Source: Candidatus Latescibacterota bacterium
GTDB lineage: Bacteria; Latescibacterota; UBA2968; UBA8231
Direction: 5' to 3'
Assembly: GCA_965221775.1 (NCBI GenBank)
Contig: CBDCSU010000006.1
Location: forward strand, 2,272,001 to 2,336,000
Length of the DNA: 64,000 nt
Shown here piece by piece: positions 7,088 through 11,878 of the stretch. A model generated the notes under the pieces. It did not search any database and was not told the origin of the DNA. It was given only the letters and a program-made list of their open reading frames with translations. The translations under genes were made by a program, and so were the position numbers. Every line of letters begins with the position of its first letter. Within the stretch, counting starts at the first letter, position 1.

Positions 7088-9343
7088 TCAATCGGCGACG
7101 GCGATGATCCTCGAGGCCTCCTGCTGCATCCGCACGAGGCCGTGGAAGACGCCGCGCCGCTCCATCAGCTCCTCGTGGCTGCCCACCTCGACGATCCGTC
7201 CCTCCTCCAGCACCACCAGGCGCTCCGCGTCCCTCAGGGTCGACAGCCTGTGGGCGATGGCGAAGGTGGTGCGGCCTCTCACCATGCGGTGCACGGCCTG
7301 CTGGATCTGCTTTTCCGTCTCCACGTCCACCGACGAGGTCGCCTCGTCGAGGATCAGGATCTTCGGGTCGTGGAGCATGGCCCGGGCGATGGCCACCCGC
7401 TGGCGCTCGCCGCCGGAGAGGCTGTTGCCCTGCTCTCCGACCTGGGTCTCGTAGCCGTCGGGCTTGGCGACGATGAAGTTGTGGGCGTTGGCCAGCCGGG
7501 CGGCGGAGACGATCTCCTCGAACTTCGCCCCCGGCTTTCCGTAGCCGATGTTCTCGGCGATGGTCCCGGAGAACAGCACCGGCTCCTGGGAGACGATGCC
7601 GATCTGGCGCCGCAGGTCGCGCAGGTTGATGCGGCGTATGTCGACGCCGTCGATCTCGATGGAGCCGTGATCGACATCGTAGAACCGGGCGATGAGGTTC
7701 ACCGTCGTCGTCTTGCCGACGCCGGAGCGCCCCACGAGTCCGATCATCTCCTCGGCGCCCACGTCGAGGTCGATGCCTTTGAGAACCGGCTTGCTCTTGT
7801 CGTAGCCGAAGGTCGCGTCGGCGAACCGGATCCGTCCCTGCATCCCGGGCATGCGCACGGCCCGGGCGTCGTCGTACGACTCGGGTACGGTGTCGATGAC
7901 CTCGAAGACGCGCTCGGCGCCGGCGAAGGCCCGCGTCATCCAGGAGTTGACCTGGCCGAACCACTCCAGGGGCTCGTAGATCTTCGCCATGCACCAGCTG
8001 ATGGCCAGCAGGGTGCCGATGGTCAGCTCGCCGGCGATCACATCCTGGCCGCCGAAGTACCAGATGATGATCGCGCCGAGGCCGGTGAGGAAGGAGATGG
8101 TGGCGAAGAACACGGTGCGGTTGACGCCCGTGCGCACGCTGATCCCGGTGATCTTGCGGTTCAGGCGCGCAAAGGCGCCGATCTCGCGGCCCTCCTGGGC
8201 GAAGGCCTTGACCACGCGGATGCCGGTGAGGGCCTCGGCGGTGCGATCGGTCAGGTTCGACCACATCTCGCCCCAGCGCGTGAAGAGCCGGCGCAGGCGC
8301 CTCCAGAACACGGCGCCCCAGACCAGGATGAAGGGCACCGGGACCAGGATGTAGAGAGTCAGCTCCCAGTTCAGCCAGAGCAGGACCCCCAGGATGACGA
8401 GGATGACCAGGGCGTTGATGACGAGGTAGGGGAGACCGTCGACGAGGAAGTCCTGGAGCCGGCCCGTGTCGCGGGTGACCCGCGACATGAGGGCCCCCAC
8501 CTTGCGCTTGTCGTAGAACTGCAGCGACAGCATCTCCAGCCGGCGGTAGAGCTCGCCGCGGATGTCGGCCGTGGCCCGGGCCCCGAGCCAGGCGGCGATC
8601 CACCCGTGGACCCACTCGGCGGCCCAGCTGACGAGGCGGATCCCCACCAGGGCCAGAACCAGAAAGCCCAGCAGCCGGAGGCGGGACTCCGGATCTGCCG
8701 GGCTGTCGTCGGCGGCCTCCACGGGCACCAGGACCTTGTCGAAGAAATGCTTGATCACCCACGGTGACGCCGCCTCGGCCCCGGTGGTGACCAGGGAGGC
8801 GACAGCCAGGGTCACGACCTTCCACGGGTACGGCGCCATGTAGCGCGAGATGCGCTTGAGGGTGGACCACTTGCGGATGCAGGCGGGACAGACGCCGTCG
8901 CGCTCCGGCAGCAGCCGGGAGCACTTCCCGCACCGGAGGCGCTCGAGGCGCGGGTTGATGAGGAAGGGCTCGCCGGCGCGCAGCTGCTCCAGCCCCCGGG
9001 CCACCTCGGAGAACTTCTCCCCCATGGACTGGGTGTAGGGGACGGCCACGGTGGGGGCCGAGCGGCGCTCGATCTCGAGCCGTCCACCGCCGACGAGGAG
9101 CTCCGTACGCACCCGGGTCACCTCGGCCAGGGGGATCGACAGGGCGCCGTTGGCCGAGGGCTCGTCGACGACGACGATGCGGCGGGAGGATGCGGCCAGC
9201 CAGCGGCAGCCGAAGGCCCTGCCTTCCGCCTCCATGTCGGCCTGGACCTGGATCAGGGCCTCCTCCCTTTCCAGGGCGGCCAGGATCCTGGCCTCAACCT
9301 CGGGAGAGACGGCCTCGATCAGTCGTGATTCCGGGCTCGTCAT
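7088..9343 (-). CDS. Exporter-fold ABC transporter (TMD+NBD) with N-terminal PH-like domain and Zn ribbon; paralog of the downstream gene
   Basis: GRSGVGKTT, LSGGERQR, ILILDEATS, AHRLST; CGKC..CPAC. Confidence 0.95.
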   Translation of the reverse strand: MTSPESRLIEAVSPEVEARILAALEREEALIQVQADMEAEGRAFGCRWLAASSRRIVVVDEPSANGALSIPLAEVTRVRTELLVGGGRLEIERRSAPTVAVPYTQSMGEKFSEVARGLEQLRAGEPFLINPRLERLRCGKCSRLLPERDGVCPACIRKWSTLKRISRYMAPYPWKVVTLAVASLVTTGAEAASPWVIKHFFDKVLVPVEAADDSPADPESRLRLLGFLVLALVGIRLVSWAAEWVHGWIAAWLGARATADIRGELYRRLEMLSLQFYDKRKVGALMSRVTRDTGRLQDFLVDGLPYLVINALVILVILGVLLWLNWELTLYILVPVPFILVWGAVFWRRLRRLFTRWGEMWSNLTDRTAEALTGIRVVKAFAQEGREIGAFARLNRKITGISVRTGVNRTVFFATISFLTGLGAIIIWYFGGQDVIAGELTIGTLLAISWCMAKIYEPLEWFGQVNSWMTRAFAGAERVFEVIDTVPESYDDARAVRMPGMQGRIRFADATFGYDKSKPVLKGIDLDVGAEEMIGLVGRSGVGKTTTVNLIARFYDVDHGSIEIDGVDIRRINLRDLRRQIGIVSQEPVLFSGTIAENIGYGKPGAKFEEIVSAARLANAHNFIVAKPDGYETQVGEQGNSLSGGERQRVAIARAMLHDPKILILDEATSSVDVETEKQIQQAVHRMVRGRTTFAIAHRLSTLRDAERLVVLEEGRIVEVGSHEELMERRGVFHGLVRMQQEASRIIAVAD

Positions 9344-9388
9344 GGCGCGAAAAGGTACGCACCGGGGGGGTGCGGCGAGTCGAGGAAA

Positions 9389-9430
9389 CAGCGCCCGCCG
9401 GCCCGGAGGCGTCCGGACCGGCGGGCGTTG
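9389..9430 (-). terminator. Long GC hairpin, probable terminator of the HTH gene
   Basis: cagcgcccgccggcccgga-ggcg-tccggaccggcgggcgttg inverted repeat, followed on the minus strand by only a short U run. Confidence 0.5.
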
Positions 9431-9503
9431 GTCGATGATGGTTGCGCGGCTGCCGGGGGCAGCCCTCTCTCCGGCTCTCCCGTCGGAGCCGGATCCGTGT
9501 CTC

Positions 9504-9686
9504 CTAGGCCCGGGACCGCGCCGCCCGGCGGGCGTTGCGCTGGCGGGCGAAGGGCGTCTCGATACCGTACTGGCGGCAGAGGCGGCCGAAGGTGCCCCCC
9601 GCGATGCCCAGGGCCTTGCTGGCCTCGGAGTTGCTGTTGTAGACCCGGGCTGCTCTTTCGATCCACTCTCTCGGGACCTTCTGCAT
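9504..9686 (-). CDS. Small stand-alone Fis-like helix-turn-helix protein (60 aa)
   Basis: Strong RBS (gaggaaggag) before ATG 9686; SEASKALGIAGGTFGRLCRQYGIE resembles a Fis/HTH_8 motif. Confidence 0.75.
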   Translation of the reverse strand: MQKVPREWIERAARVYNSNSEASKALGIAGGTFGRLCRQYGIETPFARQRNARRAARSRA

Positions 9687-9979
9687 CGGTCTCCTTCCTC
9701 TCGCGATGCATGCGAACGTCGCCGCGGTCTCGCCGTCGCGGGTGGTTCGCGAGTTCGGGCGGGACGACGCTGGCCTCCTGTTCCAGCAGCCGCGACCCCG
9801 CCGGGCGGGTGGATGCCGGCAGGCGGTGAGTGGGCCCGGTCCTGCGGACACCGCCCCCGAATCGGGAACCCCCGTCCGTCGACGGAGGCTCCGGCGCCGG
9901 CCCGCGTGCCGTACCGATCGCGGGTCCCGCGCTGCCTCGGAGTCCGGGGGGAGCGACCCCGGCGGACTCCGGGTGCAAC

Positions 9980-10025
9980 AAAAAAACCGGCTGCAGGTGT
10001 TCCCCTTGCGGGAGCCTGCAGCCGG
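9980..10025 (-). terminator. Intrinsic terminator / attenuator
   Basis: Perfect 11-bp stem ccggctgcagg (9987-9997) / cctgcagccgg (10015-10025) followed on the minus strand by U7. Confidence 0.85.
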
Positions 10026-10083
10026 CTGGCAGAAGCCGTTGGGATCCGATCCCCACGGCTGTCGTCGCTGTCGCTTCAGCGAT

Positions 10084-10338
10084 TCAACCTCCGGGATCTC
10101 CTCCCGCTGCAGGCCCCGTGCGGGGCTTGATGACCGCCCCGCCCATGGTGGAACCGGGGAGGGTCATCGGGGTGATCTCGTTCTCGTGGAGCCGGTGGAA
10201 CCCCATCCCCCCTTCGCCCGGGCCCGATACGCCCCGGCAGCCGCCGGAGGCGGAGGGGGCGGTCGTTCCGGCGAACGCCGCCTGCGGACCCGTAAACCCG
10301 AACGGGTGCAAGGGGGATTGTGGGATTCGGCTGATCAT
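10084..10338 (-). CDS. Putative Gly/Pro-rich leader or small protein (84 aa)
   Basis: ATG 10338 lies ~50 nt after the predicted TSS; aaggag upstream with long spacing; about four-fifths of codons end in G/C by hand count; stop abuts the hairpin series. Confidence 0.4.
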   Translation of the reverse strand: MISRIPQSPLHPFGFTGPQAAFAGTTAPSASGGCRGVSGPGEGGMGFHRLHENEITPMTLPGSTMGGAVIKPRTGPAAGGDPGG

Positions 10339-10394
10339 CCGGCTCTCGAAAGCTCCTTGAAGTCCATCTGATGAGGTCCTGTGCAACGCGAACG

Positions 10395-10424
10395 AACCTA
10401 TCCGGGGTTCCGGCACAATGTCAA
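10395..10424 (-). promoter_or_regulatory. sigma70-type promoter
   Basis: TTGACA (10424-10419), 18-nt spacer, TAGGTT (10400-10395). Confidence 0.7.
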
Positions 10425-10516
10425 GGGAAAAAGCGTCCCCCGCCCGGGTGGCGCGGTCCGTCGGGATCCAGCGGCGCAAAGTCCCCCCGGTCCGCCTCTC
10501 CCGCTTCGGGCCGCTT

Positions 10517-11878
10517 TCAACCGATGGCGGTCCTGAAGGCCTCGCCCCGGGCCGCATAGTCGGAGAACATGCCGAAGCTGGCGCAGCCCGGCGACAGCAG
10601 CACGACGCCGCCGGCCGGGGCCAGTTCGGCGGCCCGGCGGACCGCCGCCTCCATGGACGGGCAGTCGGCGGCCGCCGGCCCGCGGAATCCGGCCGCCGCG
10701 GCGGCCGAGGCGATGGCCGGACCCTCCTCTCCCAGGGTCACCAGCGCCGCCGCCGACCGGGCGATGGCGGCTCCCAGACCTGCGAAGGATCCGCCCTTGG
10801 AGGCTCCCCCGGCGATGAGCACCACCGGTCGGCCGGCATACGCCGCCAGGCCCGCCGCCGCCGCCTCCGGAGTCGTGGCCAGGGAGTCGTTGACGAACAG
10901 CACGCCGCCCCGCTCCGCCACCTCCTCGAGGCGGTGCGGGAGGGACTCGACGGCGCTCAGACCCTGGCCGACGGCCGCCGCGGAAGCGCCGCACAGGCGC
11001 GCCGCCCCGGCGGCGGCGCAGGCGTTGGCGAGGTTGTGGGTCCCCCGCAGACGGAGATCGCTCACCGCGGCCAGGCTCTCGACCCGGCCGTCCTCCCGCC
11101 AGCGGATCTCGCCCGCCTCGCTCCAGCAGCCATCGCCCTCCAGGGGCGGCGCGGCGCGGAACCCGAGGCTCCGCCCAGGGCTCCGGGCGGCGAGCTCGCC
11201 GGCGGTGGCGTCGCCGGCGCTGGAGACGACCCAGTCGCCGCGGCCCTGGCAGCGGCAGATCGCCGCCTTGGCCTCGACGTACTCCGCCCGGCTGGCGTGG
11301 TAGTCGAGATGGTCGAGGGTCACGGGCAGGATCACGGCCCCGTGGGGGCTTCGATCCAGATCCTGTAGCTGGAAGCTGGAGAGCTCCAGCACGACCACGT
11401 CCGCGGCGGACAGGTCGTCGAGGAAGCCGACGGGCGGTATTCCGATGTTGCCGCCCAGGTGCGGGGACAGACCGGGCTCGCGCCGCAGGATCGAGTCCAG
11501 GAGGGAAGCGGTCGTGCCCTTGCCCTTGGTCCCGGTGATGCCGATCACCGGCGCCGGGCAGCGTTCGAGGAAGAGCGCCGTCTGGCTGCTGACCTCCGTG
11601 CCGCGCCGGCGGGCCTGCTCCAGCTCCGGGCGCAGGGACGGGATGCCGGGGGAGCGGAAGATCAGGTCGAAGTCGTGGAGGCGGTCGAAGCACCCCGGGC
11701 CGAGGCGCCACTCCAGGACCGCCTCCTTCCAGGGGGCCCCATCGAGGCGGCGGGCCGGGTCGGCGTCGCAGACGGCAAAGCCGAGTCCACGGGAGGCCAG
11801 CCAGCGGCCCAGGGCCTGGTTCTCGACGCCGAGACCGAGGAGGGCCAGGCGGCGGTCCTGAAGAGCGTCGAGCTCCAA
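10517..11878 (-). CDS. murD: UDP-N-acetylmuramoyl-L-alanine--D-glutamate ligase
   Basis: FRSPGI, GITGTKGKGTT, GGNIG, LELSSFQL, DHLDYH, HNLANA, PHRLE, NDSLATTP, LLSPGCASFGMF. Confidence 0.9.
   Translation of the reverse strand: MELDALQDRRLALLGLGVENQALGRWLASRGLGFAVCDADPARRLDGAPWKEAVLEWRLGPGCFDRLHDFDLIFRSPGIPSLRPELEQARRRGTEVSSQTALFLERCPAPVIGITGTKGKGTTASLLDSILRREPGLSPHLGGNIGIPPVGFLDDLSAADVVVLELSSFQLQDLDRSPHGAVILPVTLDHLDYHASRAEYVEAKAAICRCQGRGDWVVSSAGDATAGELAARSPGRSLGFRAAPPLEGDGCWSEAGEIRWREDGRVESLAAVSDLRLRGTHNLANACAAAGAARLCGASAAAVGQGLSAVESLPHRLEEVAERGGVLFVNDSLATTPEAAAAGLAAYAGRPVVLIAGGASKGGSFAGLGAAIARSAAALVTLGEEGPAIASAAAAAGFRGPAAADCPSMEAAVRRAAELAPAGGVVLLSPGCASFGMFSDYAARGEAFRTAIG

Follow-up and report, generated by a model that had tools for sequence, protein, structure and literature searches.

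A conserved leader reading frame ahead of regulator and exporter genes in Candidatus Latescibacterota is a candidate ribosome-mediated transcription attenuator

Leaders through which a translating ribosome controls the genes behind them are known in several forms. SecM, MifM and VemP carry N-terminal export signals and unmask a downstream Shine-Dalgarno sequence for translation, rather than acting on terminators. The leaders trpL, hisL, pheL and thrL, which are textbook examples and are taken up again in the discussion of PMC4191407, have 14-30 codons, contain runs of regulatory codons and precede biosynthetic operons. The closest described system is bmrB-bmrCD of Bacillus subtilis. In this system, efficient translation of the leader blocks an antiterminator and slowed translation leads to read-through into an ABC (ATP-binding cassette) exporter; the bmrB leader has 53 codons, holds the terminator, antiterminator and anti-antiterminator inside its coding region and has been tested experimentally (PMC4191407). 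Here, we analysed a stretch of 64,000 nucleotides (nt) from a Candidatus Latescibacterota bacterium (assembly GCA_965221775.1, contig CBDCSU010000006.1, positions 2,272,001 to 2,336,000), hereafter the window. It contains a compact unit of ~450 nt, composed of a promoter, a leader open reading frame (ORF), a hairpin (H3) and two terminator hairpins (T1 and T2), which stands ahead of a small helix-turn-helix (HTH) gene and an ABC exporter gene. Based on sequence comparison, we lean towards reading this unit as a ribosome-mediated transcription attenuator with a translated leader, of the bmrB-bmrCD type, and not as a riboswitch.

All features of the window are read on the minus strand, and positions are those of the whole stretch. 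An initial annotation of the locus had listed a promoter, an 84-codon ORF ending at 10084, hairpins at 10065-10082 and 10034-10060, and an 11-bp terminator with a run of seven U residues (U7), and all of these coordinates proved correct. As read from the sequence, the promoter (10395-10424) consists of a -35 element TTGACA (10424-10419), an 18-nt spacer and a -10 element TAGGTT (10400-10395), and its position places the inferred transcription start near 10388. The leader ORF (10084-10338) runs from an ATG at 10338 over 84 codons to a TGA at 10086-10084 and encodes MISRIPQ...AVIKPRTGPAAGGDPGG. Two segments at its end are near copies of terminator arms. Segment a (10103-10117), with its core GCCUGCAGC at 10114-10106 in the P-A-A codons, resembles the 3' arm of T2, and segment b (10084-10098; GAUCCCGGAGGUUGA), made of the D-P-G-G codons and the stop, resembles the 3' arm of T1. 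Hairpin H3 (10065-10082; UCGCUG-AAGCGA-CAGCGA) begins 1 nt past the stop codon. Hairpin T1 (10034-10060) follows and, in the clade of the window, has a G.A mismatch and is without a U-tract (CUUCUGCC). In terminator T2 (9980-10025), CCGGCUGCAGG (10025-10015) pairs with CCUGCAGCCGG (9997-9987) in an 11-bp stem around a 17-nt loop with an inner GCAA-capped stem, and U7 stands at 9986-9980. For the 411-nt transcript, the predicted folding energy is -215.4 kcal/mol (z = -4.88 relative to shuffles).

The unit did not correspond to a described RNA family. A cmscan search of positions 9300-10900 against Rfam (release 15) at E <= 10 gave no riboswitch and no match inside the element; the sole matches, one microRNA and one internal ribosome entry site, were due to chance and lay outside it. 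The initial annotation had likewise been unable to assign a known family, and this judgement held. Its remark on a loose likeness to the c-di-GMP-I (cyclic di-GMP) riboswitch, which we take to be Rfam RF01051, found no support in the same search. ARAGORN reported no tRNA or tmRNA genes in the region.

The unit is conserved among related bacteria. A BLAST search with a 491-nt region matched 10 of 41 related genomes; the alignment covered nearly the full query in four of the nine matched relatives (L002-L005) and only the last ~130-160 nt in the others. In every matched locus the frame leading to the same TGA was open for at least 100 codons, and the promoter (TTTTTCCTTGACAtTGT ... TAnnTT) was kept. 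T1 of these loci has a U8 tract, which is missing in the clade of the window. An exact IUPAC pattern matched 10 of 76 genomes, and a second pattern, searched in all species genomes, returned seven records, six from Candidatus Latescibacterota and one from an uncultured Gemmatimonadaceae. Homologues were further traced by inspecting the regions upstream of HTH orthologues and with a covariance model built from 18 copies. Upstream of the closest HTH orthologues in other genera, the unit was present each time, with its parts in the order promoter (CTTGACATTGT), open frame, stop, H3, T1, T2, Shine-Dalgarno sequence and HTH gene; the frames there were open for 74-173 codons and ended in PAA[G/W]x[D/S][P/S]GG. 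The covariance model (E <= 1e-3) found 29 places in 28 of the 76 genomes of the order, of which 25 were true copies upon inspection, distributed over about 10 genera. Excluded were two decayed copies (L084 and L087) and two unrelated terminators (L085 and L086), one of them beside a tRNA. The resulting alignment (A3) replaces an earlier one (A2), which was discarded because 26 weak, mostly antisense partial matches had been mixed in.

Promoter, frame, stop position, H3, T1 and T2 recur in the 25 copies, and these features are therefore more than chance. CTTGACA was found in all 14 sequences of one set and in four of five further lineages, with TTTGACATTGT in L082; TTGT follows it in most sequences, and the -10 element has the form TAnnTT. 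An HTH homologue begins 26-294 nt after the unit in 22 of the 25 copies, and an ABC homologue or a piece thereof lies downstream in 23.

Comparing the regions upstream of HTH homologues had been proposed with the initial annotation, and this comparison showed not only that the unit recurs across genera but also that T1 and T2 covary strongly. In the alignment of 25 sequences, 94.7% of the cells in the T1 and T2 helices were paired, and changes on both sides affected 10 pairs and 44 cells; no shuffle out of 500 gave values as high. This alignment had been fitted to the T1/T2 structure; a MAFFT alignment gave 94.4% paired cells, nine pairs and 34 cells changed on both sides. Taken separately, the T1 helix had 96% of its cells paired and five of 10 pairs changed on both sides, and the T2 helix 93.5% and five of 12. 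H3 has a constant position, and its sequence differs clade by clade. T2 carries U7-U9 in other lineages. The same holds for T1, which the initial annotation had taken as one part of an attenuator. It is a full intrinsic terminator with U7-U9 in most lineages, and its U-tract was lost only in the window clade, where T2 is therefore the only terminator. A side observation concerns L033 (genome G047; reverse-complement positions ~1321-1438, ~60-175 nt past the leader stop), in which T2 is tandemly duplicated in identical copies, so that three terminators stand in a row.

The leader frame is kept open across relatives, whereas its amino-acid sequence is largely free. In the stretch from the inferred transcription start to the stop codon, the ORF frame of 14 sequences contains 12 stops in total, all of them upstream of the ATG, compared to 61 and 78 in the other two frames; when each sequence was shuffled 2000 times by mononucleotide, between 8 and 382 of the shuffles had as few in-frame stops. 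The frame was also open in five further lineages (56-141 codons), and the leader ORF ranges from 56 to 157 codons across relatives. Its stop is located at a fixed place and is mostly TGA, with TAA in two genomes of genus g9 (G017 and G043) and TAG in one genome. The indels in alignable ORF pairs measure 3, 15 and 3 nt, all multiples of three. At the same time, the ratio of nonsynonymous to synonymous substitution rates (dN/dS) is 0.71-0.99, without a reduction relative to the off-frames, and substitutions are spread flat over the codon positions (5:5:5 and 29:26:30). The product, currently annotated as a hypothetical protein, matched no Pfam or NCBIfam family (queries without the first methionine) and had only three relatives among 5.8 billion proteins, which were 87-95% identical and unnamed. 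No signal peptide or hydrophobic segment was seen in the ORF sequences. Conservation within the ORF is limited to the last ~12 codons, and upstream of the last ~40 nt nothing is conserved in sequence. The simplest reading of these patterns is that translation of the ORF matters and its product mostly does not; an ORF that is unconstrained but open makes sense for a stretch that must be translated.

The conserved tail of the ORF provides strands that can pair with the 5' arms of both terminators. We refer to the pairing of segment b with the T1 5' arm as antiterminator 1 (AT1) and to that of segment a with the T2 5' arm as antiterminator 2 (AT2). Segment b, GAUCCC-GGA-GGUU(GA), differs from the T1 3' arm, GAUCCC-UAC-GGUU(UU), in the middle triplet alone, and includes the stop codon and a Shine-Dalgarno-like GGAGGU. 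Segment a, GCCUGCAGCgGG, differs by one base in its 3' part from the T2 3' arm, (a)CCUGCAGCcGG. RNAduplex predicted a duplex of segment a with the T2 5' arm in 18 of 18 sequences (-11 to -33 kcal/mol), and the best partner of the T1 5' arm was segment b in 16 of 18 (-12 to -20 kcal/mol). Across the 25-sequence alignment, AT2 had 84.7% of its cells paired compared to 24-46% with a slid partner, and its covariation was modest, with four pairs and nine cells changed on both sides; the cell count was reached by none of 500 shuffles and the pair count by 15. For AT1, 87.7% of the cells were paired compared to 26-64% when slid.

Qualitatively, the sequence changes in T1, AT1 and the tail fit a three-way constraint. 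The T1 positions that covary freely with the T1 3' arm (A3 columns 81 and 82) are those that are unpaired in AT1, and opposite a T1 position that is either A or G, segment b has a U. Where the tail shows drastic replacements (G to K or I, genus g6), these fall in the triplet unpaired in AT1, and changes from DP to SS or SP go together with a shorter T1 apex in the same clades. Furthermore, the third codon positions of the tail are near-invariant across genera. The initial annotation had already proposed the logic of an attenuator. Conserved alternative pairings do compete with the terminators, as it had suggested, but it had named other strands; those that compete are part of the last ~12 codons of the leader. 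The 5-bp alternative stem that it had put forward exists and occurs in the predicted fold of the nascent RNA, although with the labels swapped (CGGCU lies at 10038-10034 and AGCCG at 10027-10023). As a conserved switch this stem was rejected, being present only in clades A and B of one genus.

To follow the competition during RNA synthesis, minimum-energy folds of nascent RNA were computed for nine representatives with 60 nt of upstream context and for 14 without it. With the 60-nt context, RNA ending at the T1 5' arm folded into one long hairpin of segment b, H3 and the T1 5' arm in seven of nine representatives, and partially in one more. RNA ending at the T2 5' arm formed AT2 in eight of nine (12 of 14 without context). 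In full-length RNA, T2 was present in nine of nine and 12 of 14, respectively. AT1 was part of the full minimum-energy fold in the window copy (L065) and in L063, and L080 formed neither AT1 nor T1; in the window copy, AT1 stays the minimum-energy fold even with the T1 3' arm present. When the footprint of a ribosome at the stop codon (-15 to +12) was masked in silico, T1 appeared in all 14 folds.

Taken together, these patterns suggest the following mechanism. The strong, conserved promoter would drive the leader, and transcription that reads through the terminators would reach the HTH gene and probably the ABC exporter gene. The leader ORF would need to be translated, its amino acids being irrelevant except in the last ~12 codons, which would double as RNA strands. 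Segment b and the T1 5' arm, with H3 at the tip, could form one long antiterminator hairpin, and segment a with the T2 5' arm a second antiterminator. A lead ribosome that follows the polymerase closely would be at the stop codon while T1 is synthesised, would cover segment b and the foot of H3, and would have just swept over segment a. The terminators would then fold and a leader RNA of ~400 nt would be released, in the window by way of T2. With slow, stalled or absent translation, segments a and b would be free, the antiterminators could form first, and the polymerase would continue past both terminators and transcribe the HTH and ABC genes. The ribosome as the sensor, the ribosome position that permits read-through and the dependence of the HTH and ABC genes on read-through are what we infer from this arrangement. 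A ribosome is preferred to a ligand as the input because the frame is open, the position of the stop is constant although three different codons serve as stops, and no aptamer-like conserved region lies upstream. The input signal could be the general rate of translation, which is a guess.

A further, tentative step would be to regard the unit as a gauge of the coupling between transcription and translation. The long, sequence-free ORF might then serve as a runway on which ribosome lag builds up, and the two terminators, each with its own antiterminator strand, as checkpoints that turn this lag into graded read-through. Slowed translation, for example due to ribosome-targeting natural products in a sponge holobiont, might switch on the HTH and ABC genes, and the Shine-Dalgarno-like GGAGGU could hold the terminating ribosome on segment b. 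We consider this extension possible and rather doubtful.

RNA sequence data are available for the locus. The window stretch is present in sponge and marine metagenomes, and two metatranscriptome runs of one study yielded Logan contigs at 10099/10101-10340 with depths of 18.2 and 30.4. The same two runs yielded contigs at 9496-10049 (depth 4.64) and 9453-9973 (depth 10.6); the former (X15) bridges T2 from the HTH gene, and the latter (X16) stops short of T2. A contig from a relative reaches 10366, and no contig extends past the inferred start at ~10388. None of the RNA contigs of the two runs lies on murD, on the ABC gene or in the gap 10050-10098, which proves nothing. The contigs fit transcription from the conserved promoter plus some read-through. 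As each contig has a single depth value, the ratio of ORF to HTH depth was not used as evidence for attenuation.

Several observations weigh against attenuation by a ribosome as outlined above. With regard to pairing, the covariation of AT1 in the 25-sequence alignment did not exceed that of shuffles. Both T2 arms also contain the palindrome CUGCAG that forms the core of AT2, which makes part of the AT2 complementarity automatic. AT1 was less stable than T1 in 11 of 14 folds without upstream context. With T1 thermodynamically ahead, AT1 would have to act kinetically, nucleated by H3; kinetic action is usual for attenuators. With regard to geometry, a ribosome on the stop codon leaves segment a just outside its footprint, and the simple model alone does not account for the activity of T2. 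The metatranscriptome contigs give no ends, strand or level and do not prove that leader and downstream genes share one transcript, and DNA carry-over is possible.

Initiation raises further points. It counts against the model that no good Shine-Dalgarno sequence precedes the leader ATG, in contrast to the HTH gene with its AAGGAG. Short ORFs of 7-18 codons that end at the leader start or overlap it as ATGA were seen in the window, L006-L008, L010 and L014; the candidate in the window (10335-10367) has 10 codons, encodes MDFKELSRAG, and its TGA overlaps the leader ATG as ATGA. Judged from sequence, such an upstream ORF may couple translation onto a leader start codon that is without a good Shine-Dalgarno sequence. 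It also counts against the model that the HTH gene may have a separate promoter. A consensus scanner reported no promoter-like site between T2 and the HTH gene in the window, L042 and L037 regions, and the same scanner misses the promoter of the unit, whose -10 element agrees with TATAAT at only three of six positions. It is thus too strict even for the unit promoter, and the absence of a call for the HTH gene carries little weight. The scanner also misses T2 of the window, whose 17-nt loop exceeds its limit, and T1 of L042, which we attribute to the near-palindromic stem; in L037, T1 alone was reported. In eight of the 25 copies, the spacer measures only 26-54 nt, which leaves little room for a separate HTH promoter.

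Two final points against attenuation would be expected of a true protein gene. The GC content at third codon positions (GC3) of the leader is 0.80 and exceeds that at first and second positions (0.65/0.66), a weak coding-like signal, compared to a GC3 of 0.90-0.95 in the neighbouring genes. In addition, 56-157 codons are far more than in classical leader peptides and suit a protein better. We therefore considered whether the ORF is an ordinary gene for a small, fast-evolving and probably disordered protein with a functional C-terminal tail (PAA[G/W]x[D/S][P/S]GG) and tandem terminators. The tail could, for instance, allow the ABC exporter or the HTH protein to recognise the product, with the HTH and ABC genes expressed via leaky read-through or their own promoter. 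Such a gene would explain why the frame is open in all lineages, why an ABC exporter is nearby in 23 of the 25 copies, why an insertion of 3 nt stays in frame, and why the tail is conserved as amino acids with some synonymous variation (GCA/GCG, GGA/GGC, GGT/GGA). The higher contig depth of the ORF relative to the HTH region, a weak measure, agrees with it as well. However, dN/dS is near 1 over the ORF body, the product belongs to no family and has only its three near-identical relatives, and it is without a signal peptide or hydrophobic segment. In the tail, selection on amino acids alone fails to explain the near-invariant third positions, the drastic replacements fall exactly at RNA-unpaired positions, and the nucleotide sequence mimics the T1 and T2 3' arms. 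We regard an ordinary protein gene as unlikely, albeit worth serious attention. A secreted peptide with a double-glycine leader was likewise given low weight, as the GG is at the extreme C-terminus with no core peptide behind it, the ABC protein has no peptidase domain, and an export signal is missing.

Alternatively, the transcript could be a trans-acting or dual-function small RNA of ~400-650 nt, whose 3' module (tail, H3, T1 and T2) is functional and whose position next to the HTH gene is incidental. A strong, conserved promoter and a conserved 3' end around a variable body would suit such an RNA, as would the higher depth of the RNA contigs on the short transcript, and small RNAs derived from attenuators are known, with rnTrpL/peTrpL as a reported case. 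However, a small RNA leaves unexplained the open frame and a stop of three kinds at a fixed place, it does not predict the link to HTH and ABC genes in 22-23 of the 25 copies and again in a paralogous copy, and it has no Rfam family. We consider it very improbable. Only slightly less probable, in our view, is a riboswitch or protein-dependent RNA switch that responds to a ligand such as a cyclic dinucleotide or to an RNA-binding protein, possibly the arginine-rich HTH protein at CUGCAG: conserved alternative folds, the threefold occurrence of CUGCAG (in segment a and both T2 arms) and the basic C-terminal tail of the HTH protein would agree with it, but there is no Rfam match at E <= 10, no conserved domain of aptamer size with nothing conserved upstream of the last ~40 nt, and no explanation for the open frame and the fixed stop.

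The initial annotation had proposed an RNA switch controlling the HTH gene. The conserved unit does stand ahead of the HTH gene in 22 of the 25 copies, but the evidence favours a ribosome over a ligand. Its interpretation is thus partly supported: the unit is probably an attenuator, driven by the ribosome rather than being a riboswitch, and unrelated to c-di-GMP.

The genes around the unit were compared as well. In the window, murD is the gene upstream of the unit. It has the same orientation throughout the window clade and replaces a divergently transcribed gene that was seen upstream of the unit outside this clade (L006-L010 and L033-L043) and that presumably resembles PAPS-reductase (CysH-like). 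Downstream of T2, a spacer of 293 nt (9687-9979), with the Shine-Dalgarno sequence AAGGAG at its end, leads to the HTH gene (9504-9686; 60 amino acids), the first gene after the unit. Its product has a basic C-terminal tail and matches Pfam HTH_50 only weakly (E 0.0019) and short of the curated cut-off, and a PDB sequence search with it gave nothing below E 0.36. The HTH protein family is multi-copy. Of 132 genomes of the class, 71 contained it, exclusively within family f1; counted by family, it occurs in 70 of 75 f1 genomes and in none of the 56 genomes from other families. The window genome (G000) has 11 matches, with paralogues for example at C4:39114-39287 and C5:1240266-1240430.

The ABC exporter gene (7088-9343; 751 amino acids) lies downstream of the HTH gene. 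The protein has Pfam ABC_membrane and ABC_tran domains, and its best NCBIfam match is CphA_assoc_ABC ('cyanophycin metabolism-associated ABC transporter') with 618 bits at a cut-off of 880. It also has an extra N-terminal region of ~160 amino acids (8744-9343, minus strand) with a zinc-ribbon-like CxxC...CxxC motif, and Pfam searches with its N-terminal 200 amino acids gave zinc-ribbon hints only (E >= 0.11). Between the HTH stop and the ABC start, at 9392-9427 on the minus strand, lies a GC-rich hairpin of 16 bp whose U-tract is poor (CTGTTTCC); it may act as a further point of control or be a site of processing. RNA contigs end near this hairpin (at 9453 and 9496).

Three of the 25 copies are without an HTH gene (L080, L083 and L088), and in L080 and L083 it was apparently deleted or truncated. 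Genomes carry a single copy of the unit except for G019, which has L079 and L088. L088 is a diverged paralogous copy that has T1 only and stands directly before a paralogous ABC exporter gene; L079 is followed by an HTH gene, and the ~1.2 kb of available locus beyond that gene contains no ABC gene. Decayed loci were observed in several metagenome-assembled genomes (L080, L082, L083, L084 and L087), in which the HTH gene was deleted, truncated or joined to the 3' end of the ABC gene, or in which a premature stop interrupts the leader. Unless these are assembly artefacts, the system is dispensable in some lineages.

Ribosome-dependent attenuators are known; new are this family, which is absent from Rfam, and its unusual anatomy. 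In the titles and abstract openings of the literature searched, no attenuator or leader peptide was found for Latescibacterota, nor any account of this unit. If the reading as an attenuator is correct, the unit would represent a new family of cis-regulatory leaders from a candidate phylum without a cultured, genetically tractable member. It would extend attenuation by an ORF that is constrained only to stay open, by two nested pairs of terminator and antiterminator, and by a cargo of a regulator plus an exporter. The comparative evidence suggests annotating the ORF as a leader instead of a hypothetical protein, and the compact unit could be used in a heterologous host as a candidate sensor of translation rate.

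Compared with known systems, the unit shares with SecM, MifM and VemP a long ORF with a variable body and a conserved C-terminal motif upstream of a membrane or export gene. Unlike these, it has no export signal, and RNA pairing accounts for its tail no less well than a peptide function would. As in the leaders of amino-acid operons, the last codons of the leader ORF and the antiterminator strand overlap, and the position of the ribosome would select between hairpins before a U-tract terminator. In contrast to them, it has no runs of regulatory codons, an unconserved ORF body, an ORF that is 3-10 times longer, two terminators and a different cargo, and it matches no Rfam leader family.

In contrast to bmrB, both terminators of the unit lie past the stop codon, and there are two of them, each with an antiterminator strand encoded within the final ~12 codons. 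The ORF is 56-157 codons long, a small HTH gene comes first, the phylum is another one, and there is no sequence similarity. Whereas bmrB was tested by experiment, the unit described here is known from comparing sequences. What both have in common is a leader ORF before an intrinsic terminator with a competing antiterminator (PMC4191407). They would further share, as tested for bmrB and proposed here, translation of the leader, read-through that is favoured by slow translation, an ABC exporter as the cargo and one promoter for leader and downstream genes (PMC4191407).

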